Assembly: GCF_002075285.3 (NCBI RefSeq)
Contig: NZ_CP021983.2
Coordinates: forward strand, 870,001 to 902,000
Reading direction: 5' to 3'
Source of the DNA: Halomicronema hongdechloris C2206
GTDB taxonomy: Bacteria; Cyanobacteriota; Cyanobacteriia; Phormidesmidales; Phormidesmidaceae
DNA length: 32,000 nt
Position numbers and translations under genes: made by a program. Positions 1 through 13,229 of this stretch are shown here, one piece after another. Each line of letters begins with the position of its first letter. Position 1 is the stretch's first letter. The notes under the pieces are model-generated. The model had not been told where the DNA came from. It saw only the letters and a program-made list of their open reading frames with translations, and did no database searches.

Positions 1-94
1 CTGAAATCAGATGCACAACTGAAAACTAAAAGCAACCTGCGGAATATAGGTCAGAACACTCTCAGGAATTAGTGCAAAAGCTCTATGCGTAGCT

Positions 95-181
95 AGCTAA
101 CGATTGAGATGAGCCGCCGCAGATAACCCAAAGCACCCGACACATAACCTTTCGGCGGTCGGCTCCATCGATTTGTTAGCC
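95..181 (-). other. integron attC recombination site (attC_B), closing the DUF433 / PIN-like / 4-TM cassette
   Basis: Read on the minus strand: R'' GGCTAAC (181-175) and R' GTTAGCT (101-95). GC-rich arms 113-120 and 153-163 pair as 8 bp, with T159 extrahelical on the plus (bottom) strand. Length is 87 nt. Size and architecture match the attC at 5355-5434/7375-7380. Confidence 0.6.
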
Positions 182-235
182 CTCGCAACTACCCTCTAAC
201 GATCGCTCACTCCCTGATTCTTGATTTTTCCTTTC

Positions 236-787
236 TTACCTGCCCTTCGCCAGGTCCGCGTAGATCACAATCTCAATCCCCAGAAATATCAGAAACACCA
301 GTTCTGCCCAGCACAACACTTGAATTCCCCAATGAACTTGGGACACTAGCAGCCAAAAGGCAACGATCGCAGCGATACCCGAAACAACAAACGTCAACTC
401 ATCCACAACCAGTTGTTGCAGTTTGCGGCGATGGCGACGGTTATCGCTGCGGTGAGCAATTTCCCAGCCAAAAATTGAATCAATCTCACCCTGTCCCGCT
501 TCTTCTTTAACCTTTTCAACCAGCGTGTAGCGAATGTAGCGACCTAGTGCCGTAATTTTTTCATCGTTAACCAGATATGTCCATCCTAAAATAAGACAAA
601 TCCAGGGAATAATCAAAAAGGCATAGTAATTGTTGTTTGCCAGAGAAAAGGAAAGAATACCGCCGAATAGACCAAGGGTGACATACAGCAAGTTATCTCG
701 AAAACCGATGCGGGCTTTTTGCTCGTCTTTGAGCCGCTGATATTCTTGCAAATAAACTTCTAGCAGTGGAGATTTATTGTCAGCCAT
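236..787 (-). CDS. 4-TM integral membrane protein of unknown function (cassette-encoded)
   Basis: ORF 236..856 trimmed to the ATG at 787 (MADNKSPLLEVY...), 10 nt after the stop of the upstream gene. Four hydrophobic helices: LLYVTLGLFGGILSFSL, YYAFLIIPWICLILGWTYL, LTFVVSGIAAIVAFWLLV, VLCWAELVFLIFLGIEIVIY. No family recognised. Confidence 0.65.
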   Translation of the reverse strand: MADNKSPLLEVYLQEYQRLKDEQKARIGFRDNLLYVTLGLFGGILSFSLANNNYYAFLIIPWICLILGWTYLVNDEKITALGRYIRYTLVEKVKEEAGQGEIDSIFGWEIAHRSDNRRHRRKLQQLVVDELTFVVSGIAAIVAFWLLVSQVHWGIQVLCWAELVFLIFLGIEIVIYADLAKGR

Positions 788-797
788 TGCGTTTACC

Positions 798-1145
798 TTA
801 CAACGGAAGATATTGAATCTGGTTGAAATAATCTTCTGGTTCGGCGACTTTTGCAATCAGGTCCAAGTCTCGAACACAATCACCTACCGATACTGCTGTT
901 TGGCGAGCATAGATCACTCCGGCAAAGTCAATTCCTTCTGCTTGACGACGTGATGCTTCAATGGGGAAATCCTCATCTTGCGAAAATAGGACTCGCCCTA
1001 ACTCCAGTGCCCGATCAAGTAAAGCCGGATCAGGATAACCCCTGCGATCATCTTCTTGAACCGTAAGGATATCAACTCCTCGACGACGTAATCCTTCCGT
1101 GATTGCCAGCGGCACATGCTCATCCATATAGAGCGCGATCGTCAC
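798..1145 (-). CDS. DUF5615 / Mut7-C-type PIN-like nuclease domain protein (putative toxin)
   Basis: 3' part of ORF 798..1217. The GTG at 1145 overlaps the TGA of the upstream DUF433 ORF (GTGA, 1142-1145); an alternative ATG is at 1127. VTIALYMDEHVPLAITEGLRRRGVDILTVQED... resembles DUF5615 proteins, which normally pair with DUF433. Confidence 0.6.
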   Translation of the reverse strand: MTIALYMDEHVPLAITEGLRRRGVDILTVQEDDRRGYPDPALLDRALELGRVLFSQDEDFPIEASRRQAEGIDFAGVIYARQTAVSVGDCVRDLDLIAKVAEPEDYFNQIQYLPL

Positions 1146-1456
1146 AGCAATCCTTGCTCCCGTAGTTTCCGAGCGACTGCTGATTCTCCTACCTGTTGAC
1201 GGGCATGGGCTGCCCACTGGTCGATCTGCTCAATTTCAGCATCCATATCTGCTTTGTGATCCCAGTAATACGCCAGGGCAGAATGAATCTGGCTCATAGA
1301 AAGATGGGGATAGTTGGCGTGAAGTTCGTCGGGATTCCAGCCATAGGCTTTGACAGAGGTAATCAACTCGATCACCTTCATCGTAGTATCGGCGATAACC
1401 GGAATTCCATTTTCATTAATTTGAATATATTTGTAGTCTGTAGTAGTGAGAGTCAT
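1142..1456 (-). CDS. DUF433 domain protein (putative antitoxin / DNA-binding partner)
   Basis: 104 aa. YIQINENGIPVIADTTMKVIELI...GWNPDELHANYPHLSMSQIHSALAYYWDH matches the DUF433 pattern. It is translationally coupled to the downstream PIN-like ORF. Confidence 0.7.
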   Translation of the reverse strand: MTLTTTDYKYIQINENGIPVIADTTMKVIELITSVKAYGWNPDELHANYPHLSMSQIHSALAYYWDHKADMDAEIEQIDQWAAHARQQVGESAVARKLREQGLL

Positions 1457-1501
1457 GATAACTAGCGGGAGTAGAGGTGGACTAATCAGAATTCTTGAAT
1501 C

Positions 1502-1864
1502 TCAGGAGTTACCTGCTTCCTCCTCCGATACATCAAACATCAATAGATGCTTGATGAACCCTGCTGCCGCTGCTGCTGCGTAAAGTTGCCAGGGCTTGTC
1601 TTTAGTGCCGTCTTTAGTATCGTCCGCATAGTCACACAAGGCACGGACAATAAGACATCGTATCCGTTGATCCCATGCCGCTTTGCTGACACCATATCCT
1701 TCCATTTCAATTGCCCGAATTCTTCGGCTATAGGCAGCAATCCTATCTCGCACGTCGGGATCGGCAATGACGTTGTCTCCGGAAGCAATAACACCAATCT
1801 CGACTCCAGGGTAAGTTCCAGTATCATTAGGTCGCTCAGCAAGAATGGGAAACTTTCTTTTAGG
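1502..1864 (-). pseudogene. C-terminal part of a nucleoside phosphorylase superfamily (PNP_UDP_1-like) gene, separated from its upstream part by IS66 insertion
   Basis: KRKFPILAERP...GVEIGVIASGDNVIADPDVRDRIAAYSRRIRAIEMEGYGVSKAAWDQRIRCLIVRALCDYAD carries the C-terminal MTA/SAH-nucleosidase-like motifs (xEMEG, R..CDYAD). The first four codons of ORF 1502..1876 (GTGACCAGTTAC) are IS terminal sequence. Confidence 0.75.
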
Positions 1865-3443
1865 GTAACTGGTCACCGCAATAGTAGAGGCTTAATGAGA
1901 AAGCCTCTGACGACCCAGACTTATCCTGGTAACAGAACAGGAGGCGAGCACCCTGATGAGGCGAGGAGCTCAAAGAGCTGGTCTACCGCGTTTTCACCCT
2001 GACGGCGCATCGATTCGAGGAAGCTGACCATCATCGCCACGAGCTGAGCCCCCCACTCACTGCGGGCACCGCCACTGACGTTGCGATGAATCACCACCGG
2101 CCGTAGGCCTCGCTCCGCATCATTGTTGTCCGGGTTAACCTCAGGCTGAGAGAGAAAGGTAAACCAGTCTGAGCAATAGCGACGAAACCGGTTGCTCAAG
2201 GCTTGAGAATCAGCGGTCCAACGCCCGTTGGGGGGGTGCTCAAGCACATGGGCTAATTCTGCCTCGACAATCGGCCGCAGCGCTTGGAGTTCGCCGAGAC
2301 TGAATTGACCCCAATGATAGTCCCGGTGGGCCTGCCGAGCGGTCTGAATAATCGGCAAGATGCGCTGGGCGAACTCTCGATTTTCCGGGAAGCGAGAGAT
2401 TGTCAATGCCTTTAAGTCCCGCTCAATGTGGGCCCAGCATTTCTGCTTGGCGGCGGCCGATTGCGGCCCGTAGGCGGACCAGCAGTCGCTGCTGAGGACG
2501 CCCGCAAACTCGCCTCCCAAAAGCGCGTTGACTTCTGCCGAACTGCGGGTAGGGGCAAAGAACAGCACACAGCACTCGGGGGCGGTGGCAATCCACAGCC
2601 AATGATTCACCCCGTTCAAGCGATAACTGGTCTCATCGACACAGCGCACCCCCGGCTGTTGAATCCAGCTCCACCAGTGCTCATAGGCCGGTTGTAAGGC
2701 CTCGCAAAACCACTGATGCAGCTTCGCCAAACTCCCCTGAGACATCGGAATCCCGAAGATACTCTCGACCACATAGCGCTGTTTTGACCACGATAAGTTG
2801 CCGCCATACCCCAGCCAACCCACCACACTACTCAAGCGGCCGCCATAGCTAAACCCCTCCCGGCATCCCAGCGGCAAGTCCTGATAGCCTTGCCACTCGC
2901 AGGCGGGACACCGATACAACGGTCGCTCGTACTCCCAAATCTCGACGAGCTCTGGCACTAATTCGGCCACTTGCTGTCGCTTTGTCCCTTGGGGTTGGCG
3001 CTCCACTGCACCGCCGCAGATCGGGCAACTCTGCATGTCGAGTAACACGCTGTGGTCAATCCAACCAAAGCCATGGCGGGTCGTGCCAGGGTGGTTGTAT
3101 TTGGGGCCTCGTTTTCGCTGGGACTTTTGCTGATCCCGCTTCGGTTTCTTGGGGCCATCAGAGGATGGCGGCTGTGAGCTGGTTTCACTGGTCCGCCGGG
3201 TTAGCTTCCTGAGCTTCTCGCTCAGGGTCTCGAACTGCTCCTCGAGCTCTTTCACCCGTTGCGTCAGGCGCTCTGTCTCCGCTCGTTGCTCGCAATAGCG
3301 CTCGTACCCGTACCTCGCCCCTTGCTCTTCAGGGTCGATCTCGGAGAGGGTTGGCTCTGGCTGCGGTGGCTTTTTCATGTCCTCTACTCTACCGACTTTT
3401 GCCTGTTTCGCAATAGGTGGGTCTTGTTGCGGTGACTAATTAC
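1865..3443 (-). mobile_element. IS66-family insertion sequence, single-ORF type, apparently intact
   Basis: Terminal inverted repeats GTAACTGGTCACCGCAA (1865-1881) and, reverse-complemented, GTAATTAGTCACCGCAA (3443-3427) match at 15/17 and start with GTAA. A perfect 8-bp direct repeat CTTTTAGG flanks the element (1857-1864 and 3444-3451). Length is 1579 bp. Confidence 0.85.
1921..3378 (-). CDS. IS66-family transposase (TnpC-like, DDE)
   Basis: 485 aa uninterrupted. It has an N-terminal coiled-coil/leucine-zipper region, zinc-finger-like CPICG...CPACE, and DETSY...SDCWSAY...CWAHIERD...NPDNNDAERGLRP motifs typical of IS66 transposases. Confidence 0.9.
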   Translation of the reverse strand: MKKPPQPEPTLSEIDPEEQGARYGYERYCEQRAETERLTQRVKELEEQFETLSEKLRKLTRRTSETSSQPPSSDGPKKPKRDQQKSQRKRGPKYNHPGTTRHGFGWIDHSVLLDMQSCPICGGAVERQPQGTKRQQVAELVPELVEIWEYERPLYRCPACEWQGYQDLPLGCREGFSYGGRLSSVVGWLGYGGNLSWSKQRYVVESIFGIPMSQGSLAKLHQWFCEALQPAYEHWWSWIQQPGVRCVDETSYRLNGVNHWLWIATAPECCVLFFAPTRSSAEVNALLGGEFAGVLSSDCWSAYGPQSAAAKQKCWAHIERDLKALTISRFPENREFAQRILPIIQTARQAHRDYHWGQFSLGELQALRPIVEAELAHVLEHPPNGRWTADSQALSNRFRRYCSDWFTFLSQPEVNPDNNDAERGLRPVVIHRNVSGGARSEWGAQLVAMMVSFLESMRRQGENAVDQLFELLASSGCSPPVLLPG

Positions 3444-3721
3444 CTTTTAGGAACCGCTTTTGCCAGGTTCAAAAGCCATTCATCAGCAGGAATTTGCTCA
3501 GGTTCTTCGAGTTTGCCTTTAGGGGTCAATTTACCGAGTTCAAAGTAATAAACGCTCTCTCCAATGACTAAATCACCGAGAATTTGCAGGTGGAAAGGGT
3601 AAGGGATTACGGCGCAGATCCAAAATTTTGAGTTGGGGTAACTCTTCGAGTCAATCAGGGCAAGTTTCAATTTGGGTAAACGTTCACGTGAGGCGTAAAG
3701 GAATGTGAAATCCGGCCATGG
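3444..3721 (-). pseudogene. upstream part of the same phosphorylase-like gene (central domain segment); N-terminal third missing
   Basis: ORF 3440..3670 ends ...LAKAVPKR and then a TAA supplied by the IS end. Deleting 1865-3443 plus one CTTTTAGG copy joins ...AVPKR to KFPILAERP... in frame. ILGDLVIGESVYYFELGK resembles the central GD-containing strand of the fold. The frame stays open upstream to 3721, inside the next IS end. Confidence 0.7.
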
Positions 3722-5341
3722 TCATCCTCTGGTAATTTAAGGAACTATGGATGAGCAATATCTCAATCAGCCAGAGGGAATTCCTTTAGAAGACTGGGAG
3801 CGCACTCCAGTCAGCGTCAAGCAACTGGTTGGCCAGTTGAGTCAGCGCCTGGTGCAGTTAGAGCATCAATACCAGGACATGCAAGCGCAGATGCAGTTGC
3901 TGCAAGAGCAACTCAACCGGAACTCAACCAACTCATCGCAACCCCCGTCATCCGACCCGCCGCAGGTCGAGCCCCGTCGTCGTCGCCGCAACCGAGGTCG
4001 AGGCCGAGGCGGTCACCCCGGCCATCCCGGCCACCATCGCCGGTTGTTTGCGCCTGAGGCGTGTGAGACTATCAGCGATCATTATCCCGAGACCTGCGCC
4101 AACTGTGGTGCGGCCTTGAGCGGAGAAGACCCGAATCCCTATCGGCATCAAACCGTGGAGATGCCACCGGTCGTCCCTCAAGTGAAGGAATATCGCTTGC
4201 ACCAACGGGTCTGTCCCCAGTGTGGTCATCGGACTCGTGCCAAATTGCCAACCGGTGTTTCTAGTCACGTTTATGGGCCTCGAGTCGTCGCTACGGTCGG
4301 TGTGCTCAGTAGTCTGTATCGCCCTCACAGCGCCTGGTGCAACAGGCCATGGCCGATTTATTCGGCCTCCCAATAGCCCTGGGCAGTGTCAATAATCTGC
4401 GCCAACAAGCCAGCGAGGCGGTGGCTGAACCGGTCGAGGTCGCCAAGACCTATGCTCGCCAACAACCGATTGTGGGCTCAGATGAAACCAGTTTTTCCCA
4501 AGGCAATGTGGATGGTCACAATCCTGAGGGACGTCAAGGTTGGCTCTGGGTGGTGGTGACGCCCTGGGTGAGCGTCTTTGAGGTGTTTCTCCATCACTCC
4601 CAACAGTCCGCCCAGGCCCTCTTAGGCGCAACGTTCGATGGCATTTTGATTTCAGATCGCCACAGCGCCTACACCTGGGTGGCCTTGGAGCGTCGGCAGC
4701 TCTGTTGGGCGCACTTGAAACGAGACTTCACCAAAATTGCCGAGCGCACAGGGGTGTCTCAAGGTTTAGGTGAGGCGCTGCTCGAGCAAGAACAGGCGTT
4801 ATTTAAGCTCTGGTATCAGGTTCGAGATGGCACCTTAGCGCGTCCACAGTTTATCGAGGCGGTGAAGCCGATTCGCGAGCAGGTGAAGGCCCTGCTCACC
4901 GAAGGCGCTAGCTATGCCATCGGCCCTAAAGAGAAGACGCCGTTGGCGAAAACGGTGCGCACCTGTCAACGCTTATTAACGGTGGAACCGGCCCTCTGGC
5001 TCTTTATCACAGTGGAGGGGGTGGAACCGACTAATAATGATTCTGAGCGAGCGTTGCGACCAGCGGTCATCTGGAGAGGCATTAGTTTTGGCTCCCAGAC
5101 GAAGGCCGGCAGTACCTTTGTGGCTCGAATGCTGACGGTGATAGCAACACTACGTTCTCAAAATCGCAGTATCCTCGAGTACATGACTGAGGCCTGTCGG
5201 GCAGCCCGTGAGGGGAAACCGGCTCCTTCATTATTGCCGCAAACTCCTAATACACAAGAGCGGGACTCACTTGCGGCTTAATACCCACTGGTCGATTACG
5301 GTTTCAAAGACTCGACCAACAATCTTTCACTACGCCTGCAC
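3676..5341 (+). mobile_element. second, different IS66-family element (boundaries approximate)
   Basis: Subterminal inverted match GTGAGGCGTA..GTGAAA (3688-3710) against reverse-complemented GTGCAGGCGTA.GTGAAA (5341-5322). A GTAA-type start is possible at 3676. I could not find a clean 8-bp target duplication. Confidence 0.55.
3747..5281 (+). pseudogene. IS66-family transposase interrupted by a single frameshift
   Basis: ORFs 3747..4376 and 4337..5281 are the N- and C-terminal parts of one IS66 transposase (CANCG...CPQCG zinc finger, DETSF, SDRHSAY, CWAHLKRD, PTNNDSERALRP). The frame changes at about 4320-4325: ...SSLYR then SQRLVQQAMADLFG. One base appears to be missing in tatcgccctcacag. 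Confidence 0.85.
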
Positions 5342-5354
5342 AAATCACTCAGAG

Positions 5355-5434
5355 GGCTAACGGTGAAAGCCAGCGGCGGTAGGTGACCTATGCGGCTTGG
5401 CCAGAGCTTTTAGACCGTCCGCTGCGCTGAGGTG
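5355..5434 (-). other. integron attC site (attC_A), major part: R' box, both L arms and the first base of R''
   Basis: Minus-strand R' is GTTAGCC (5361-5355). Arms 5369-5379 (GCCAGCGGCGG) and 5415-5427 (CCGTCCGCTGCGC) pair as 11 bp, with T5418 and C5425 extrahelical on the plus (bottom) strand. G5434 plus 7375-7380 restores GTTAGAC, the complement of R'' GTCTAAC. Total length is 86 nt once the intron is removed. Confidence 0.7.
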
Positions 5435-5932
5435 GTACGCCCGGCACGGGCGTGAACTAATGGGGTGAAAGTCCCCTGTCGGAGAACCAGTGTCCAAATG
5501 CTCGAAAGCTAATTGGAGCCGAGAGACACCAACGACTAGCTTAAGGCAAGGGCGTTTCCGCGAGGGAGGGTCTGGAGGAAGCCAGCGGCAAAGCTGCGAG
5601 CCGACGGACAGAAACATCATAGAAGGCCGAGATTCCTGGGGCGAGTCTGCCACACAAGACAAAGCCCTCTGGTTCAGGGAACACGGTAAATGGCGCGGTT
5701 GTGCAGGGACAGTTCACGGTCTTATCCGGGGAGGTCTGCCCAGGTGCAGCCAGGGGCGCTAGGGAAGTCGGACTGAGGGCCATCCCGAAAGGGCTGGACA
5801 ACCCACCGAATCCTACGGCAACTCAGGCAGCGCGGCTAACGGCAACGTGAGGCGAACTGGGCAGAAGTCAGCCGAGGTCATAGTAGCTGCGTTGGCAGCG
5901 AAGGACCGAACAGTGTCAAATAAGGAGGAGCC

Positions 5933-7270
5933 ATGACGGACTCAGACGTATCAATGAACCTGGATAGGGGAGACACGGTCTGGCGCACGGTCATGCAGCC
6001 AGCCTTAGACATCAACCTGATGGCGAAGGTGGTAGCGAAAGCCAATCTGCAGAAGGCATGGCAACGAGTGAAGTCAAACCAGGGAGCACCCGGCAGTGAC
6101 GGGATGTCTCTGGAAGCCTTTCCAGGCTATGCCCGCGAGCATTGGCCCACCATTCGTCAGTCCTTGTGGAATGGAACTTACCACCCTCAACCCGTGCGGC
6201 GGGTGGTAATACCCAAACCAGGGGGTCGAGGGGAAAGATTGCTCGGTGTGCCCTGTGTGGTCGACCGCGTGATTCAACAAGCCATTCTGCAAGTGCTCAC
6301 GCCAATCTTTGACCCCGGCTTTTCCGAGTCAAGTTTTGGCAGTCGCCCCCAACGCTCGGCTCATGGAGCCATTGCCCAGATAAAGGGCTATCTGAAGGAG
6401 GGCTATCGCGTCGCGGTGGATTTGGACTTAGAGAAATTCTTCGATACCGTTCATCATGATGTGCTGATGTCCCGCGTTTCACGCAAGGTGCACGACAAAG
6501 TGCTTCTGAAACTGATAGGCCGCTATCTACGAGCTGGCGTCATGGTGGACGGCATCATCCAGGCAACGGCATGGGGAACCCCGCAAGGGTCGCCCTTGTC
6601 GCCGCTGCTCGCCAACATTTTGTTGGCTGAACTAGATCAGGAACTGGAGCAGCGAGGCCACCGCTTTGTGCGCTACATGGATGACTTGGTCATTCTGGTC
6701 AGAAGTGAGCGGGCAGGCAAGCGGGTCATGGCTTCTGTGAGTCGATATCTGACCCAAAAGCTGAAGCTGAAGGTGAATCGGCAAAAGTCCCAGGTAGTGA
6801 ATGTCCATGACTTGGAATACCTCGGATTTCAATTTCGAGGGATCCGAGTCTATTGGTCGGACCAAGCCTTTGCAGACTTTAAACACCGACTGAAAGGGCT
6901 AACGGCCCGCAGTTGGCGCGTCTCAATGGCCCATCGCCTGGAGCGATTGAACCAGTACTTGAGAGGCTGGATGGGTTACTTTGGCATCTCGCAGTATTAT
7001 CACTCGATACCGGATCTCGATGGATGGCTGAGGCGTCGCCTTCGGATGTGTTACTGGAAACAGTGGCGTCGACCGCGCACGCGCATTCAGAAGCTCCTGG
7101 AATTGGGGACGGATAAGCGTCATGCGATTCGGACAGGCATTAGCCGTAAGGGCTATTGGCACCTGTCGCGAACGCTGGCAACGCAAACGGGGATGACCAA
7201 TGAGTGGTTAGCAAAGCAAGGATTGTTGTCGATACGTGACCTTTGGATGAAAGCCCAGGGTTACATTTAA
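5933..7270 (+). CDS. group II intron reverse transcriptase/maturase (no endonuclease domain)
   Basis: 445 aa. RT motifs are present, including YMDDLVILV (YxDD), plus a maturase/X domain (RLNQYLRGWMGYFGISQ). The protein ends shortly after the X domain with no HNH/En extension. Confidence 0.95.
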   Translation: MTDSDVSMNLDRGDTVWRTVMQPALDINLMAKVVAKANLQKAWQRVKSNQGAPGSDGMSLEAFPGYAREHWPTIRQSLWNGTYHPQPVRRVVIPKPGGRGERLLGVPCVVDRVIQQAILQVLTPIFDPGFSESSFGSRPQRSAHGAIAQIKGYLKEGYRVAVDLDLEKFFDTVHHDVLMSRVSRKVHDKVLLKLIGRYLRAGVMVDGIIQATAWGTPQGSPLSPLLANILLAELDQELEQRGHRFVRYMDDLVILVRSERAGKRVMASVSRYLTQKLKLKVNRQKSQVVNVHDLEYLGFQFRGIRVYWSDQAFADFKHRLKGLTARSWRVSMAHRLERLNQYLRGWMGYFGISQYYHSIPDLDGWLRRRLRMCYWKQWRRPRTRIQKLLELGTDKRHAIRTGISRKGYWHLSRTLATQTGMTNEWLAKQGLLSIRDLWMKAQGYI

Positions 7271-7301
7271 CAACCCAGGTTAGTGTTTGCTCCTTGATGC
7301 T

Positions 7302-7374
7302 GAACCGCCCTGTGCGGACCCGCTTGCAGGGTGGTGTGGGAGGGGGGATTCGTGAGGATTCTCCCTATCCCGAT
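7302..7374 (+). ncRNA. group II intron domains V and VI
   Basis: DV (~7304-7335): ACCGCCCUGU pairs with GCAGGGUGGU (10 bp), with a UU bulge on the 3' strand, a 3-bp distal helix GCG/CGC and a 4-nt loop. This 32-nt form is short, as expected for class C. DVI (7338-7370): a 14-bp helix with a GUGA tetraloop and a bulged A7367 lying 7 nt from the 3' end. Confidence 0.75.
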
Positions 7375-7380
7375 TTAGAC
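7375..7380 (-). other. remaining 6 nt of the R'' box of attC_A (3' exon side of the intron)
   Basis: TTAGAC lies immediately 3' of the intron. With G5434 it forms GTTAGAC on the plus strand, which is GTCTAAC (RYYYAAC) in cassette orientation, starting 3 nt after the stop of the protease gene. Confidence 0.7.
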
Positions 7381-7383
7381 CGT

Positions 7384-7791
7384 TTACGGCGACTTGGGCT
7401 TAACCTCGAATTCCATCTTAGAGCGATAAAAACATATGTCGAACTCCACAAAAAAGTTCGTCTGACCTAGAATCAATGGTGCATTGGGGCCTTTAGTCCA
7501 AGCAAAGGCTAATTGAACTGGAGCGATATCTCCAACTTGAACCATCGCGGAGAATGGTGTAGCTGGTTGGTTGCCCAAATTTCCTGCCAGTTGAATGATT
7601 GCTCTGCTGTCGTCCCAGGTGGCCCCAAGCTGTAGACCCAGTTCATAAGGCATAACGTTGACGGTTGCGCCACTGTCAACCAGGCCGAGGGCTTCAACTG
7701 TACGCCCCTCGCGACGAAGAATGAGCGGCACCCGTGGAAGACTATCGAACTCGTTCTGGGAGGTATCGGTGGTGGAATAGCGGAAACGCAT
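7384..7791 (-). CDS. retropepsin-like (clan AA) aspartic protease
   Basis: 135 aa with the active-site motif LVDSGAT, followed by a flap-like region and ILGQTNFF. The size is typical of single-domain bacterial retropepsin-like proteins. Confidence 0.75.
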   Translation of the reverse strand: MRFRYSTTDTSQNEFDSLPRVPLILRREGRTVEALGLVDSGATVNVMPYELGLQLGATWDDSRAIIQLAGNLGNQPATPFSAMVQVGDIAPVQLAFAWTKGPNAPLILGQTNFFVEFDICFYRSKMEFEVKPKSP

Positions 7792-7796
7792 GACAA

Positions 7797-8006
7797 TTAA
7801 GCCTGATCCGCTGACTTTAAAGCTTGCATTAACGTAGCGCCCGCCCCAAAGCTGTTGTAGGGGGTCGGCAAATCATAGGTTTTGAAGGGTTCCAAGGGCG
7901 AGACATCCTCTGCTGCTTCTAGATCCTCTGCCAAAATCCGAATCAGCTTAAGTTTTTCTGTGATAGAGAGTTGTCGAATGGCGGGAAGAACATCAATAAG
8001 AGTCAT
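7797..8006 (-). CDS. small antitoxin-like protein ('addiction module component'-like N-terminus)
   Basis: 69 aa. MTLIDVLPAIRQLSITEKLKLIRILAEDLE resembles the helical N-terminus of putative addiction-module antitoxin components. Its stop lies 5 nt before the protease start. Confidence 0.55.
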   Translation of the reverse strand: MTLIDVLPAIRQLSITEKLKLIRILAEDLEAAEDVSPLEPFKTYDLPTPYNSFGAGATLMQALKSADQA

Positions 8007-8172
8007 TTTTCAATGTCTAGGATAAAAAACTGTTAGCTCTTCAAGTCTAGCCAATTTTGTGCTGGCTCGGTCGGACACCGAGCAACCTTCAGCGATTTTT
8101 CAATACTACAGAGAAATATCTAGTTCCTCCTCCTTACACAGGTTTTGGCTTTCACGGTCTAACTCTATGTTT

Positions 8173-8382
8173 TCAACGCCGATTTCTATTACGTTCCGTC
8201 ACCCTAAAATAGGTCTCTATCATTGACGAAAGAAAAGCGACAATTATGAAGATACCTCCACAAATTACGCCAAACCATAAATTTGACTGAGATGTTAAGC
8301 CTCCATGAAAAATTATTGCCCCCGCAAGAAGCACAAACTGTGGTTCGAGTTCTTTTCTCATCATCAATTTCCCAAAGAACAA
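8173..8382 (-). CDS. hypothetical small membrane peptide (weak call; TTG start, alternative ATG at 8364)
   Basis: This is the only minus-strand ORF between two GTTAGACCG boxes (8418-8410 and 8163-8155). It has two hydrophobic stretches, lies in AT-rich sequence and matches no recognisable family. Confidence 0.3.
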   Translation of the reverse strand: MFFGKLMMRKELEPQFVLLAGAIIFHGGLTSQSNLWFGVICGGIFIIVAFLSSMIETYFRVTERNRNRR

Positions 8383-8409
8383 AAAACAATCGCTGAGAAT
8401 CTGAATCGT

Positions 8410-8588
8410 CGGTCTAACTTGTAATTGATCAGCATTACCTCCCTCGAAGCGGTCTAATCCACCTCTGCGGAGGTATTATCTACCATTCGTGCTAGATAAT
8501 ACTCCTCAGGGAAGATATAGCCAGCAGAAAACCGGTCTAATCACCCGATTGAGGGGGGTATCCATCATCTATGCAATCTAATCACCCT
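8410..8588 (-). repeat. direct-repeat array of the integrase-box-like motif CGGTCTAA(C/T)
   Basis: Plus-strand copies: CGGTCTAAC at 8410-8418, CGGTCTAATC at 8450-8459 and at 8533-8542, and ATCTAATC at 8576-8583. TCTAATCACCC is repeated at 8537-8547 and 8578-8588. The same 8-mer also occurs at 8155-8162 and, inverted, at 5410-5417 and 7375-7382. Confidence 0.7.
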
Positions 8589-8743
8589 AAATCCAGGGAT
8601 TAGGCGGCTAGAAAGCTCGATAAGATCCCAATCAGGGGTGTTATCCAGCACTTGACGCAGATAATAGCCTTGAAACGGTGAGTTATCCGGCTAACTTCAG
8701 CAAAACTTTATTTAGAGTATGGATATATTCCAGTGTGATATTT

Positions 8744-8757
8744 AGTACACTAGTCCT
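8744..8757 (+). promoter_or_regulatory. candidate cyanobacterial LexA-type operator overlapping the putative intI promoter
   Basis: AGTACACTAGTCCT differs at one position from my recollection of the cyanobacterial LexA box RGTACNNNDGTWCB. It lies just downstream of an extended -10-like TGTGATATT (8734-8742) and 24 nt upstream of the intI ATG. Confidence 0.25.
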
Positions 8758-8780
8758 ACTCATGTGTCTGCTACTCACCC

Positions 8781-9746
8781 ATGGAACCCCGACCTAGGAA
8801 GCTGCTCGACCAGGTTCGAGATGCTATTCGGCTGAAACATTATTCCTATAAAACTGAGCAGACCTACGTAGGTTGGATTCGTCGCTATATCCTTTTCCAC
8901 AACAAGCAGCATCCCAAGGAAATGGGTAGTGCTGAGATTGAGGCATTCTTGACTCATCTCGCTGTTGAACAGCAGGTGTCAGCCTCGACTCAAAATCAGG
9001 CATTCAGTGCTCTGCTGTTTTTATACCGTCAGGTCTTGAACCAAGACTTAGGTAGCTCTATCAATGCTGTCCGGGCTAGGCCATCCCGGTATTTGCCAAC
9101 GGTGCTCACCAAGGCTGAGGTGAGATCAATACTCAGCCGGGTGACTAAGAGTCCCGGCCTCGTGATTCAGATACTCTACGGTAGTGGCTTACGGCTCAAT
9201 GAAGGATTGCGGCTACGCGTCAAAGATTTGGATTTTGCCCAGCGTCAAATTATCGTCCGTGATGCCAAAGGCCACGAAAGTCGAGTCACAATGCTCCCAA
9301 GCAGTTTGATTGACCCTCTACGGCAGCATCTACAGCATGTGAGGCGGCTTCATCAGCATGATTTAGACCGGGGGTATGGTTCGGTTTATCTTCCCTTTGC
9401 ATTAGAACGCAAATATCCCTATGCCGATCGCGCCTGGATTTGGCAATTTGTATTTCCGTCTCTATCAAGATCCAAAGATCCGCGCAGTGGGCTGGTTAGA
9501 CGACACCATCTACATGAAAGTAGCGTGCAGCGAACGCTCAAACAGGCAGTTCGGGAGGCCGGTATCCCAAAACGAGTCAGTTGTCATACGTTTCGACACA
9601 GTTTTGCCACCCACCTGCTTGAAGATGGCTACGACATTCGCACTGTGCAGGAACTGCTAGGGCACAAGGATGTAAAGACGACTATGATTTATACCCACGT
9701 GCTGAATCGAGGTGGGTGTGGGGTACGTAGTCCGCTGGATGGGTAG
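8781..9746 (+). CDS. intI: integron integrase (IntI-type tyrosine recombinase)
   Basis: 321 aa. It is collinear with IntI1 as I recall it: [50 protein letters not shown], the IntI-specific insertion [21 protein letters not shown]...[15 protein letters not shown], then [52 protein letters not shown]. Catalytic R, HxxR and Y residues are all present. Confidence 0.93.
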
Positions 9747-9846
9747 CTGTGCTAGTTAGCCTGTAATTGTTGAGTCGGTGGGACCAACATACAATAGAAC
9801 CACACCTCAATAGGTTGCCTGTTGCCTGCTGGAACAGAGCCGTCCC

Positions 9847-10046
9847 ATGGTCCACTTTCAGCCCTATCTCCTGACTGCCCGTGACTTTATTTATCGCTAC
9901 TTTATTTATCGCTATGGCGATGCCTCTCAGTACGAACTAATTGATGGGGAGTGCATTGGCTTGGAACTGACTGGAATCCATGAGCAGGTCGCGGGCTTTA
10001 TCGGGCGAAAGTTGAACGTTGCCATTGATCAGCAAGATCACCCCTA
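9847..10046 (+). pseudogene. Uma2-family (DUF820) endonuclease-like fragment, run into by an IS630 element
   Basis: SQYELIDGECIGLE...TGIHEQVAGFIGRKL resembles the N-terminal third of Uma2-family proteins. Even with the IS removed, the frame stops after about 70 codons. Confidence 0.4.
9886..9915 (+). repeat. 15-bp tandem duplication
   Basis: tttatttatcgctac followed by tttatttatcgctat (14/15 identical), encoding FIYRY-FIYRY inside the Uma2-like fragment. Confidence 0.9.
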
Positions 10047-11205
10047 TAGCAATCCCATTTAATTCATGAAAAGCTTCCGTACATGTGGAGTTTGGGGAAA
10101 TCCAAAGATATCTAGTCTAAAGAACTGCTCAAATAGCGCTTTGAGGGCTGAAAAACAGGGCTTTAAGCCCGACATCCGTCGTAACCAGATCTTCGCCTGC
10201 AACCAGGCATCTTCAATTGGGTTTTGACTGGGATCATTGGGCGCAAACTGGACACAGTGGAGCTTCCAGTCCTCCGGGGCCAATCCCGCATTTACCTCCG
10301 CCAGAAAGGCTCGTAAGTCGTGGGAACGATGGTAACTCGCTCCATCCCAAAGAATCAGCAAGCGCTGACCAGGAAATTGGGGTTGCAAACACTGGAGATA
10401 GGCAATGGTTTCGGTGGTGTCCCCTTTGGCATGGGCCTGAATCACCAGGCGTTTTCTGAGCAGATCCAGTGACCCGTAGTAGGTTTGACGGTCCCGTTCA
10501 TTCACGATGGGCATCTCAATCCGCTCATCGGTGCGGCCCCAGACATATCCTTGCAAGTCGCCACTGAGCCAATGAGACTCATCGACCAACAGAACTCTCA
10601 GGCGTCCGGCTTCAATCTCCTCCCGGTAGCGCGCCAACAACCGTCGGATTTCGACTTTTTTGCGGCCACCGCCTTGGCATCGGCTTTGGGATTGACTTTA
10701 CTGGTCTTTTTTCAACTGATGCCAGCCGCCTTAAACAAGTCGTAGTAGCTTTGCTTGGACTCATACACGACATCGTAATGTTCAGCCAGATGCGACTCTA
10801 ATTCGCTTAACTCCCAGATCTTCTTCGTTCGTAACCATTGCAGGACGGCTTCCTTGGCCTCTGGGGTTAGATAACTCTGACGTCCTTTATGTTGGGGCCG
10901 AAAGCCAGCGAGACCTTCCCGTTCATAGACCTGTTTCCATTTGCTTAGGGCCCCAACGAGACATCCAAAATCGCGATGATGGCTTCGTAAGTGTAATCCT
11001 GATAAATCAGTTTGACGGCGAGCACTTTTTTCACTTGACGACCATCCCGCTCAGTGCGGATGAAGGTTTTGAGCTCTTCTATCGCAGTCGTTTTTTTTGG
11101 CCGATTCGGACAGAGCAACAGGCATCGGGAAAGACCTCAGTAGCCTAGTTTAGGTAGCTTCCGTAATTATACTGAGATGTCTTCACAAATCATTCCGGAT
11201 TGCTA
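10047..11205 (-). mobile_element. IS630-family insertion sequence (decayed)
   Basis: Terminal inverted repeats TAGCAATCC (10047-10055) and GGATTGCTA (11197-11205), flanked by TA on each side (10045-46 and 11206-07), which is the IS630 target duplication. Length is 1159 bp. Confidence 0.8.
10059..11125 (-). pseudogene. IS630-family transposase with multiple frameshifts
   Basis: The DDE_3-type C-terminal part is intact in ORF 10059..10640 (LLVDESH...ILWDGASYHRS...FAPNDPSQNPIEDAW). The N-terminal HTH part (MPVALSESAKK / TTAIEELKTFIRTERDGRQVKK / LSKWKQVYEREGLAGFRPQHKGRQSYLTPE... / KTSKVNPKADAKAVAAKK) is spread over three frames. The shifts occur at homopolymer runs, for example T8 at 11091-11098 and T6 at 10655-10660. 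Confidence 0.8.
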
Positions 11206-12639: not shown

Positions 12640-12918
12640 CTATGCCATTAATCGGCGGATCATGGTGAAAAAGATGGGATCCGGCAACACCTTTCGCAAC
12701 CCCAGCAACAATCCGGCATTGCCCCCAGCGGTGTAGCGTAACCACCAAGAACCGTCGGTGGCAGCCCGATAAATGGCCTCAGCCGTTATCTCTGGAGACG
12801 ACCCCTCACTCTCCATCTGCATGGCTGCGGCCACTCGCCAACCCCGTTGCTGAAAGATTCCAGCCGTTGCCTGACCAATGCCCGAAGGGGCCCCTGTAAT
12901 CAAAACAGTTTTGTCCAC
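12640..12918 (-). pseudogene. short-chain dehydrogenase/reductase remnant lacking the catalytic core
   Basis: From the GTG at 12918: VDKTVLITGAPSGIGQATAGIFQQRGWRVAAAM (Rossmann TGxxxGIG). This joins directly to a C-terminal SDR-like tail (PEITAEAIYRAATDG...), and the roughly 150 aa containing YxxxK are absent. Confidence 0.5.
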
Positions 12919-13229
12919 TGATGATATTTCCCAAACGGGATGTCTGTATGGCAGTGATGTACAGGCGACACGATACCTCAGCCCCCACGGCGGCGTAGTT
13001 AGCCTCTTCGAGAGCAGCCCCTCCAAACCTAAAAGCATCCCCTGAGCAGAGTTCAAGGGGACGCTTGCTTGGCGCTATTGCCGACGGTGCCGGGCATCTA
13101 CTCCAAAACCGCTATTATTCTAAGCCATGCCGTACCTCATCAACGGTAAGGTGACCCGTGAGCCCCAGGAGGGCAACGAGGATTAGCGGGTGGCATAATC
13201 AAGCCACAGTGATTTATTCTCTAATCCTC

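Follow-up and report, generated by a model that had tools for sequence, protein, structure and literature searches.

The chromosomal integron of Vibrio cholerae, which has well over a hundred attC sites, encodes a full-length integrase with an extra IntI-specific domain (VchIntIA, or IntI4; PDB 2A3V) divergently from a same-strand cassette array, whose attC sites are species- or lineage-specific, with RYYYAAC/GTTRRRY R boxes and bulges on one arm, and whose cargo includes toxin-antitoxin-like genes and genes of unknown function. The attI1 site of class 1 integrons combines a simple site with two direct repeats, DR1 and DR2, within about 70 bp. Cyanobacteria are among the integron-bearing taxa surveyed by Cury et al. 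(2016; PMC4889954), and a Cyanobacteria-specific attC covariance model has been published (Ghaly et al., 2021; PMC8352920); these surveys treat the same kind of element in the same phylum and supply counts and models, whereas we describe the anatomy of a single locus. The open-access literature yielded no description of attI, spacer palindromes or an intron-split attC for cyanobacterial integrons, and no integron described from Halomicronema. Group IIC-attC introns, such as S.ma.I2 of Serratia marcescens (Leon et al., 2010), follow a rule of insertion into the attC bottom strand, in the R'' box, at TTGT/T and in opposite orientation (PMC7923331; PMC3001079).

The locus described here occupies positions 1-9746 of a 32-kb stretch of DNA (the window, analysed as a whole) from the filamentous cyanobacterium Halomicronema hongdechloris C2206, and is very probably a chromosomal integron of classical divergent layout: intI is on the plus strand, attI lies upstream of it, and the cassettes extend leftward of attI and read on the minus strand. 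As the initial annotation had proposed, the family-supported ORFs in 236-8382, leaving aside those of the IS elements and the intron, are all on the minus strand, and the chromosomal context is cyanobacterial, with the flanking genes (cobB, trmH, thiE, a FraI-like protein, pilC, dnaK and dnaJ) and the nearest relatives of the integrase in agreement. The novelty that it implied, in a phylum taken to be little explored, was overstated, because cyanobacterial integrons and an attC model are already in print (Cury et al., 2016; Ghaly et al., 2021) and species-representative genomes hold more than 500 close IntI relatives, the nearest from Leptolyngbyaceae and Nodosilinea. The locus resembles the V. 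cholerae integron in gene layout, integrase type, attC architecture and kind of cargo, but differs in its phylum, in having a very short visible array, with two attC sites, that IS66 elements and an intron have entered, in an attC length of 86-87 nt with a conserved GCAGATAAC loop start, and in a long attI-intI spacer (363 bp) with multiple palindromes.

Both attC sites were recovered by a covariance model (R1) built on five repeats drawn from four cyanobacterial loci other than this one, with no window sequence. The intact 87-nt attC of cassette 2 (95-181) scores 58.1 bits on the plus strand (E = 5e-17), which is the bottom strand of the site, and 67.1 bits with a broader attC model (R2) run with filters off over the 32 kb, compared with 11.8-18.9 bits on the minus strand (R1: 11.8); as DNA it folds into a single bulged hairpin (-15.5 kcal/mol, z = -3.3) that 2 of 200 shuffles equal. 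The main part of the attC of cassette 1 (5355-5434, likewise plus, or bottom, strand) contains the R' box GGCTAAC, both L arms, the loop and the G of the R'' box, and scores 40.1 bits with R1 (E = 6e-11) and 51.2 bits with R2 when read at 5355-5441; the last six bases of its R'' box, TTAGAC, lie beyond the intron at 7375-7380 (plus strand), where they were placed by matching the spliced site. Once spliced, this attC has the same architecture as that at 95-181, with a folding energy unexceptional relative to shuffles (z = -0.85), and its uninterrupted homologue at a related locus of Nodosilinea sp. AN01ver1 (L083) scores 58.8 bits. R2 detected no further attC sites in the 32 kb. The model built from other cyanobacteria finds the very two palindromes that had been read as attC, and the polarity that had been assigned from the bulges on the R''-side arm agrees with the ORFs, both sites being on the plus strand and the ORFs on the minus strand.

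The window sites belong to a repeat family linked to IntI. In 80 related loci (964 kb, E < 0.01), all 59 attC matches lie upstream of intI, a portion estimated at about 31% of the DNA searched, and 58 of them are on the intI-sense strand. Over these 59 sites, 89.5% of hairpin cells pair, against 32-44% with slid partners, and double changes are seen in 241 cells, against 77 in shuffles, a pattern of covariation that supports the hairpin. The bottom-strand hairpin has a RYYYAAC/GTTRRRY R box with an invariant AAC...GTT, a GC-rich L box and two conserved bulged bases on the 3' (R''/L'') arm. Under the standard integron mechanism, IntI would bind this folded bottom strand (here the plus strand) and exchange strands at AA↓C.

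Cassette 1 (5361-8417, minus strand) lies between the attI core and the G↓TTAGCC of the split attC and measures 3057 bp, of which 1117 bp remain once the intron is subtracted. It carries a two-gene module, in which a 69-aa protein (7797-8006, minus strand; weak match to PADLOC PDC-M52A, E = 4e-4) is followed by a 135-aa retropepsin-like protein (7384-7791, minus strand; PDC-M52B, E = 8e-42; weak match to Pfam Asp_protease_2) with 2175 homologues, those named being cyanobacterial. At the Nodosilinea locus, both genes are present at about 88% nucleotide identity and are followed by the uninterrupted attC; similarity stops at the GTTAG of R', and the window differs by an insert of exactly 1940 nt, so this empty-site comparison fixes the boundary of cassette 1 and both ends of the intron.

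The insert (5435-7374, plus strand) is a class-C-like, endonuclease-less group II intron, with Rfam matches to RF02001 at 5554-5720 (123 bits), RF01998 at 5831-5906 and RF00029 at 7303-7374. Its 445-aa reverse transcriptase/maturase (5933-7270, plus strand) scores 394 bits against TIGR04416 (cut-off 300), has RVT_1 and GIIM domains and no endonuclease domain by Pfam, and is about 51% identical to the products of plasmid ltrA genes; in the two plasmid contexts checked, the Shewanella gene is in an integron array beside intI and the Citrobacter gene is without an annotated integrase. Removal of the intron, which had already been recognised as interrupting the second attC, leaves GGTG↓TTAGAC, matching both the model consensus UGUUAGgC and the empty Nodosilinea site. 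The element would have reverse-spliced into the attC bottom strand after the stem, at this junction. It shares with S.ma.I2-type introns an insertion in the R'' box, a position between the cassette gene and the rest of attC, an orientation opposite to cassette transcription and an encoded protein with reverse transcriptase and maturase but no endonuclease domains, a likeness drawn from domains, site and orientation in a different host phylum. Members of the same intron family directly 3' of attC matches in two relatives (L008 and L011) use the canonical junction, TTGT↓intron↓T, whereas the window site, GGTG↓T, departs from the TTGT↓T consensus by one base, and the putative EBS1 loop of the window intron reads CACACA instead of ACAACA. 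Because 1.9 kb of intron now divides its R box in two, the intI-proximal attC probably cannot fold, in which case cassette 1 would stay locked for as long as the intron remains in the DNA.

Cassette 2 (101-5360, minus strand), delimited by the crossover points of the two attC sites, measures 5260 bp including two IS66-family elements, and contains five ORFs or fragments and no internal attC with filters off. The IS66 element nearer attI (3680-5345, plus strand, ends approximate) has a frameshifted transposase (3747-4376 and 4337-5281) whose two ORFs match positions 2-101 and 110-385 of profile NF033517. The other (1885-3408, minus strand) encodes an intact 485-aa transposase (1921-3378; NF033517, 270 bits, cut-off 180) and is flanked by an 8-bp direct repeat, CGCAATAG, at 1877-1884 and 3409-3416; its inverted repeats are weak. 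Next to it is a pseudogene (1502-1876, minus strand), the C-terminal fragment of a PNP_UDP_1 nucleosidase-type effector that covers only positions 140-219 of the 233 in PF01048 and matches PDC-M60C (2e-16) and a PN-superfamily effector (3e-12) in PADLOC. A 76-aa ORF without a family match (3440-3670, minus strand), which falls just upstream of this fragment in a different frame when the intact IS66 is removed in silico, is possibly the middle fragment of the same pseudogene. Further left, an antitoxin-like DUF433 protein (1142-1456, minus strand; PF04255, E = 2e-9) is separated by 14 nt from its toxin-like partner, a DUF5615/PIN-like protein (798-1127, minus strand; PF18480, E = 4e-11; PIN_10, E = 2e-4) that likely starts at the ATG at 1127. 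The last gene encodes a 183-aa integral membrane protein (236-787, minus strand; XM38_008490 of H. hongdechloris C2206, 100% identity) with 1883 homologues, those named being cyanobacterial, and has a counterpart 83% identical at the DNA level in another integron remnant (L085). The suggestion that the cargo consists of conflict or defence genes holds in part, namely for the DUF433/DUF5615 pair, the PADLOC candidate pair PDC-M52A/B and the nucleosidase-effector fragment. Left of the last attC, the window holds only 94 nt.

Three mobile elements have entered the array, two IS66 elements in cassette 2 and the intron in the attC of cassette 1, and what is left is sparse and decayed: two cassettes, two IS66 elements and one nucleosidase pseudogene. 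Related loci have one attC per 0.5-2.5 kb, whereas the window has two in 8.4 kb; from this scarcity, together with the IS66 elements, the pseudogene and the split intI-proximal attC, we conclude that the array is partly immobilised. It is possible, if doubtful, that matters have gone further and the locus is a relic, still recognisable as an integron but no longer exchanging cassettes and decaying under IS and intron insertion. The frameshift in one of the IS66 elements, the fragmented nucleosidase gene, the 1.9 kb splitting one attC so that a single intact site is left in the window, the IS630 remnant immediately past intI, and an attI region in which we found no consensus sigma-70 promoter toward the cassettes would all fit such a history. 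However, intI is full length and free of frameshifts, with its catalytic positions all aligned to VchIntIA, the attC at 95-181 is a high-scoring member of its family, and close kin of both cassettes (83-88% nucleotide identity) are present elsewhere, in different genomic surroundings; for cassette 1, the resemblance to its counterpart breaks off at the core site, which suggests that cassettes have moved fairly recently in this lineage. We favour an integron that is partly immobilised and whose integrase may be active at present. The single metagenome scan for cassette turnover at the locus gave one match, by chance. Several points count against the integron interpretation: the window has no more than two attC sites over 8.4 kb, cassette 2 lacks an internal attC, the spliced attC of cassette 1 folds no better than shuffles by energy, no consensus promoter was found toward the cassettes, and the intron junction deviates by one base from its consensus.

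It is very improbable that the hairpins serve mainly as homing targets or terminators for the group II intron family and not as substrates of IntI. Class C introns do insert downstream of stem-loops, terminators among them (PMC4424553), this intron family occupies three of the attC-family sites examined, and relatives also contain ORF-less intron derivatives of about 700 nt at attC sites; yet 56 of the 59 sites in relatives are intron-free, their R boxes and bulges are of the integron type, cassette homology ends at the sites, and the use of attC bottom strands by introns is a known secondary phenomenon (PMC3001079).

The integrase gene (8781-9746, plus strand) encodes an intact protein of 321 aa with Pfam domains Phage_integrase and Phage_int_SAM_4. 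Its residues 9-320 align with residues 6-318 of VchIntIA (E = 4e-92), an alignment that takes in the R, K, HxxR, H and Y positions as well as the insertion specific to IntI, in line with the initial annotation, which had reported that insertion, a full catalytic set and an unbroken reading frame. The notion of a Xer- or phage-type integrase that merely neighbours unrelated cyanobacterial repeats or terminators is effectively refuted: palindromic repeats are common in cyanobacterial genomes and Xer models do match the C-terminal catalytic domain (141-173 bits over all Xer models, 141-146 for XerC/XerD), but each falls under its own cut-off and below the 481 bits (cut-off 265) of the 'integron integrase' model TIGR02249, the insertion aligns to 2A3V, and the palindromes, which R1 matches, form a family with an invariant R box and conserved bulges that in 80 loci is confined to one side of intI and, with one exception in 59, to one strand.

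Motif homology with relatives places the core of attI, a simple site, at 8412-8433 (minus strand), a position that adds to the initial annotation, which gave none. It reads GTCTAAC↓TTGTAATTGATCAG on the plus strand and has the R box G↓TTAGAC on the cassette (minus) strand; the predicted crossover would fall between 8418 and 8417, 363 bp upstream of the intI ATG. Relatives have a common motif, RYYYAAC↓T(A/C)TTTATTAGAC, about 270-390 bp upstream of intI; three pairs of related integrons (L007/L008, L031/L034 and L016/L019) are similar to the right of it and unrelated to the left, and the first bases of a MAG contig (L001) are exactly the AAC of the motif. Like attI1, the site has an inverted pair of IntI-box-like sequences with the crossover in the R box (GTCTAAT-N5-G↓TTAGAC in relatives) and further box-like sequences on the intI side; unlike in attI1, the candidate accessory sequences would here be three or more tandem palindromes of about 39 bp spread over 120-250 bp.

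No feature of the locus is less well explained than these tandem palindromes of the attI-intI spacer. The spacer, at 8445-8700, contains several imperfect palindromes with half-sites (GGTCTAAT, GATAA...TTATC) similar to the R box of attC. It has seven palindromic pairs where shuffles give 0.4, and 8445-8530 (z = -3.2) and 8612-8700 (z = -2.0) both form stable folds. In relatives, nearly all matches to an nhmmer model of the roughly 39-bp unit lie 50-250 bp upstream of intI. The palindromes are candidate accessory IntI sites or operators.

At the attI end of cassette 1, an orphan ORF of 69 aa (8173-8382, minus strand), which has no homologue among 5.8 billion proteins, sits in a 246-bp AT-rich segment between copies of CGGTCTAAC (8155-8163 and 8410-8418). 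This segment shows neither an attC fold nor a match to the attC model, and the copy at 8155-8163 is unexplained and counts against the preferred interpretation; two cassettes may have fused to form cassette 1. The window contains 7 copies of CGGTCTAA, compared with 0.55 expected.

The recombinase gene at 8781-9746 is a single uninterrupted ORF on the plus strand, whose 321-aa product scores 481 bits on the NCBIfam model TIGR02249 'integron integrase' (cut-off 265) and 141-173 bits on the XerC, XerD and XerA models, each time under the model's own cut-off. Its best solved-structure match is Vibrio cholerae IntI4/VchIntIA (2A3V; E = 4e-92): residues 9-320 align to residues 6-318 of VchIntIA without a large gap, the IntI-specific insertion (additional domain) lines up with ALKEKYPNAPYEFRWHYLFPS...DPESDVMRRHH of 2A3V, and the catalytic motifs GLRL, KG, HTxRHSFATH, LGH and IYTH align to their VchIntIA counterparts. 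On profile score and alignment to the sequence of a solved structure, we assign the window recombinase to the integron integrases, and to neither the Xer recombinases nor the phage integrases, which bears out the initial annotation in its description of an IntI-type enzyme with the diagnostic insertion, its catalytic residues and no frameshift. A protein scan of one genome per species recovered more than 500 IntI relatives, the closest of which (up to 82% identity) come from Nodosilinea and Leptolyngbyaceae, followed by those of other cyanobacteria and Chloroflexi.

Because a scan for RYYYAAC...GTTRRRY ends combined with folding energy returned many false positives within genes, we used covariance models in its place to detect attC sites; Rfam holds no attC family, and the models were specific to this family of sites. 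In a rough scan of those loci for which a long upstream flank was available, we found hairpins much like the palindrome at 95-181; they have in common GCTAACG, GTTAGC, a GC-rich stem and a loop that opens with GCAGATAAC (family consensus: GCTAACG...GCAGATAAC...CCGTCCGC...GTTAGC). The first model, R1, was built from five aligned sites of four other cyanobacterial loci, with no window sequence included, and these five sites fold to a single hairpin, in which base changes compensate each other and a bulged T is conserved on the 3' side. Applied to the whole window with filters off, R1 matched 95-181 (+) at 58.1 bits (E = 5e-17) and 5355-5441 (+) at 40.1 bits (E = 6e-11); its next-best match scored 17 bits, and 95-181 read on the minus strand gave 11.8 bits. 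In 80 related loci (964 kb), the same model found 59 sites at E < 0.01, every one of which lies upstream of intI, though upstream DNA makes up, by our own tally of coordinates, only about a third of what was searched; all are on the intI-sense strand except for one inverted site in locus L008. In the alignment of these 59 sites, which is fitted to the model and thus somewhat favourable, 89.5% of cells are paired, versus 32-44% when partners are slid, and changes on both sides occur in 241 cells, versus 77 in shuffles. A second model, built from the 59 sites, again picked out the two window sites, at 67 and 51 bits, with no further convincing match.

The two palindromes differ in their folding. 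The DNA fold of 95-181 is clearly better than that of shuffled sequences (z = -3.3), and the other site, once spliced (5355-5434 plus 7375-7380), takes the same shape at an unexceptional energy (z = -0.85); it is the model and homology, and not its folding energy, that identify it as the attC of cassette 1. Apart from a minor departure from consensus, in that GTTAGCC has C for the third R of GTTRRRY, both have RYYYAAC...GTTRRRY ends, L boxes and polarity-setting bulges, and both are attC sites, as the initial annotation had proposed from the sequence alone. Relatives carry one attC per 0.5-2.5 kb, as compared to two in the 8.4 kb of the window array, one of them split. Two candidates for a third window site were rejected: the segment at 8150-8250 yields no fold (z = +0.46) and no model match, and that at 8535-8605 (14 bits, E = 0.14) is one of the palindromes that are present between attI and intI in all relatives.

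The extrahelical bases of an attC, as in the VchIntIA-VCR structure, belong to the R''/L'' arm; in the recombinogenic bottom strand, this is the 3' arm. Both window sites and the family consensus bear their bulged bases on the 3' arm of the plus strand, so that, following this standard description, the plus strand is the bottom strand of attC and the cassettes read on the minus strand. This reading agrees with the orientation of every ORF that has family support, just as the initial annotation had argued from the two palindromes. With the crossover at AA↓C in the 5' box, the boundaries fall at 100/101 and 5360/5361, delimiting cassette 1 (5361-8417) and cassette 2 (101-5360), both of which contain several ORFs, co-oriented wherever they are supported, and end in an attC that lies 3-54 nt past the stop codon.

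A possible third boundary (8157-8163) is without an attC. The 9-mer CGGTCTAAC is present both at 8155-8163 and at 8410-8418; its minus-strand reading, GTTAGACCG, is exactly complementary to the R'' box of the split attC. Between the two copies is an AT-rich segment of 246 bp that contains an orphan 69-aa ORF, for which a search of 5.8 billion proteins found no homologue. The copy at 8155-8163 may represent the boundary of a fused cassette that has no attC, a reading for which neither a fold nor a model match was found in support.

The outer boundary of cassette 1 could be checked in a second genome. Among some 2200 homologues of the 135-aa protein encoded at 7384-7791, one occurs in Nodosilinea sp. 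AN01ver1 (locus L083), where this gene and its partner, which encodes a 69-aa protein in cassette 1, are both present at about 88% nucleotide identity. An uninterrupted attC (58.8 bits) comes after the two genes, on the other strand. The spliced window attC and the L083 attC align from GTCTAAC to GTTAG, and the similarity stops directly after, as would be expected of a cassette boundary. The stop of cassette-1 homology at the core site and the occurrence of cassette relatives in other contexts lend indirect support to excision and integration of these cassettes, presumably catalysed by IntI. In L083 itself, the PDC-M52-like gene pair and its intact attC (9786-10497) stand alone among ordinary chromosomal genes, and since neither an intI nor a second attC lies within 10 kb, this unit is a solitary cassette.

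The same empty site reveals what splits the cassette-1 attC of the window. Between its two parts lies a group II intron (5435-7374), with domains RF02001, RF01998 and RF00029 recognized by Rfam at 5554-5720, 5831-5906 and 7303-7374 of the plus strand, and with an intron-encoded reverse transcriptase/maturase (IEP) at 5933-7270 (+; TIGR04416, 394 bits), in which a Pfam search identified the domains RVT_1 and GIIM and none of an endonuclease. When the window sequence GAGGTG[1940 nt]TTAGACC is set against its empty-site equivalent of GAGGTGTTAGACC in L083, 5435 and 7374 are the sole boundaries that reproduce the empty site. This comparison places the intron in the bottom strand of attC, inside the R'' box and directly past the L stem; it lies between the cassette gene and the remainder of its attC, opposite to the direction of cassette transcription.

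Group IIC-attC introns, which are well described from proteobacterial integrons, likewise occupy the attC bottom strand opposite to the cassettes (PMC3001079, PMC7923331), and their target consensus is TTGT↓T (IBS1/IBS3; PMC7923331). The window copy resembles them in encoding a reverse transcriptase/maturase without an endonuclease, in its bottom-strand R'' position and in its orientation; its junction, however, is GGTG↓T, one base off TTGT↓T and outside the consensus. Two more copies of this intron family, both ORF-less and about 700 nt long, were found in two other cyanobacterial integrons, L008 (2275-2974, minus strand) and L011 (5391-~6093, plus strand), where each begins at the point at which an attC model match has its 3' end, and their junctions (TTGT↓GTACG...CCCGAT↓T) do have the TTGT↓T target. 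The putative EBS1 loop reads CACACA in the window (5645-5662) versus ACAACA in these two copies (alignment columns ~213-226), a difference that parallels their 5' exon ends (GGTG in the window versus TTGT). The change in the loop would fit a one-base shift in target, making retargeting by one base possible.

In pairwise comparisons, the IEP is 67% identical to a copy on a Methylocalor plasmid and about 51% identical to ltrA genes on enterobacterial, Aeromonas and Shewanella plasmids. On a plasmid of Shewanella xiamenensis, two such ltrA genes lie in an array beside a gene annotated as an integron integrase, and their orientation relative to it is that of the window; the copy on a Citrobacter plasmid has no annotated integrase nearby. 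Class-C-like group II introns that target attC, ORF-less ones included, are present in cyanobacterial as well as proteobacterial integrons. Their insertion may also have consequences for the array: with the halves of its R box 1.9 kb apart, the intI-proximal attC should, from what is known of the mechanism, fail to fold, which would leave 95-181 as the sole usable partner of attI within the window and would make this a case in which an intron insertion disables an attC.

Outside the IS elements and the intron, every ORF of the two cassettes that has family support lies on the minus strand. Cassette 1 carries the orphan 69-aa ORF and a pair of genes for proteins of 69 aa and 135 aa, which match the PADLOC candidate system PDC-M52A/B (E = 4e-4 and 8e-42, respectively). 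Cassette 2 holds two IS66 elements, a 76-aa fragment (3440-3670), a PNP_UDP_1 fragment, a DUF433/DUF5615 (PIN-like) pair and a 183-aa membrane protein. The first IS element (1885-3408) encodes an intact transposase (NF033517, 270 bits; cut-off 180) and is flanked by the 8-bp direct repeat CGCAATAG at 1877-1884 and 3409-3416; its terminal inverted repeats are weak, and its membership in the IS66 family is given by the IS66-type transposase together with the 8-bp target duplication. The transposase of the second (~3680-5345) is frameshifted, and no other copies of the IS66 elements, or of an IS630 element to the right of intI, were found by blastn. Only the C-terminal third of the PNP_UDP_1 nucleosidase-type effector remains and, because removal of the IS in silico restores no single frame, the gene is a pseudogene. 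These contents are of toxin-antitoxin and candidate-defence type, which is in line with the earlier impression of conflict or defence genes; a role in defence is indicated only by family matches to candidate systems.

The membrane protein of cassette 2 (236-787) has about 1900 homologues and is 100% identical to XM38_008490 of the chlorophyll-f cyanobacterium Halomicronema hongdechloris C2206. A copy of its gene with 83% DNA identity, whose product is 86% identical, occurs in locus L085 (Logan ERR9580538), which at 520-3746 contains another integron remnant, whose intI fragment is split and runs in the direction of the cassettes. There, the membrane protein is followed by a full-length 408-aa PNP_UDP_1 protein and then by an attC. 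Membrane protein and nucleosidase are neighbours in both arrays, in a different order.

The initial annotation had claimed an attI region for this integron and had not located the site, which we sought in an alignment of the 420 nt that precede intI in about 30 relatives. Common to them is a core, RYYYAAC↓T(A/C)TTTATTAGAC, situated 270-390 bp from the intI ATG. To the right of this core, pairs of related integrons (L007/L008, L031/L034 and L016/L019) are almost the same in sequence; to its left they are unrelated. One MAG contig begins exactly at AAC. Numerous metagenome-assembled contigs (those of L001, L005, L006, L010, L013, L014, L018, L023 and L034, among others) stop at the core or close to it, 200-390 bp upstream of intI, which is consistent with assembly failing where population-variable cassettes begin. 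By this comparison with relatives, the putative attI of the window is CGGTCTAAC↓TTGTAATTGATCAG at 8410-8433 (core 8412-8433), 363 bp from the ATG of intI. A single metagenome scan with a 21-mer from attI hit one contig, which had no other similarity and is a chance match.

Between the attI core and intI, relatives contain three or more imperfect palindromes of about 39-41 bp in tandem (e.g., TTTCCACCTAAGATCCC-N5-GGGATCTTAGGTGGAAA), and a profile of the ~39-bp unit finds 30 loci, with its matches placed nearly always 50-250 bp upstream of intI (for example, at 9788-9908 in L019, 1346-1465 in L026 and 143-263 in L018). Those of the window (8445-8700; e.g., 8470-8505 and 8615-8649) are more diverged than those of its relatives but present: the spacer has 7 palindromic pairs versus 0.4 in shuffles, and the folds are stable. 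The half-sites, GGTCTAAT and CCTAAG, resemble an R box; counting a fixed 11-mer half-site did not distinguish the spacer from background. We found no description of such palindromes in the literature searched, and they are the least-explained feature of the locus and the one that could prove new. One tentative reading, which we consider rather doubtful, is that these tandem palindromes (120-250 bp), whose position is conserved across cyanobacterial integrons, might form an undescribed extended attI that loads several IntI molecules, or else an operator array for a regulator of intI and cassette expression; if so, attI recombination or its control would be changed in this lineage.

A scan for cassette promoters found nothing. 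LexA control of intI was also considered: AGTACACTAGTCCT at 8744-8757, about 25 bp upstream of the intI ATG, is one mismatch from RGTACNNNDGTWCB, which we take to be the cyanobacterial LexA box. The strict box occurs only in locus L012, and forms with one mismatch are found in the window, L002 and L032, which is too weak a pattern for LexA control to be claimed.

By its integrase, catalytic residues, attC sites and putative attI, the locus is classified as an integron, and its structure had been read accurately with respect to intI, attC and polarity. The presence of integrons in Cyanobacteria has already been reported (Cury et al., 2016; PMC4889954), and a Cyanobacteria-specific attC covariance model has been published (Ghaly et al., 2021; PMC8352920). 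The searchable literature yielded surveys in the form of counts and no anatomical description of a cyanobacterial integron, and in the literature searched we found no mention of Halomicronema hongdechloris together with integrons. The window provides, as an example annotated in full, a chromosomal integron of a cyanobacterium, from which the attI core, the attC family consensus, the cassette boundaries checked in a second genome and the covariance model can be reused, the last of these finding arrays in other genomes of Leptolyngbyaceae and Nodosilinea. The concept of the integron is unchanged by it, and its value is as a reference anatomy with one open question, that of the spacer palindromes.

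To the right of intI are the remnant of an IS630 element and then genes of an ordinary chromosomal kind: cobB, trmH, thiE, a gene for a FraI-like septal protein, an ABC transporter, pilC, dnaK and dnaJ. The IS630-family transposase, immediately downstream of intI and before cobB (10059-10640 and 10945-11118, minus strand), is degenerate and matches DDE_3 in its C-terminal part only. Since cobB is found within 10 kb in just one of the 80 related loci, where it is 44% identical, the insertion locus is not conserved. Beside cobB, a 138-aa ORF (12640-13056, minus strand) matches SDR oxidoreductase models at their N- and C-terminal ends only and is probably a deleted or truncated gene.
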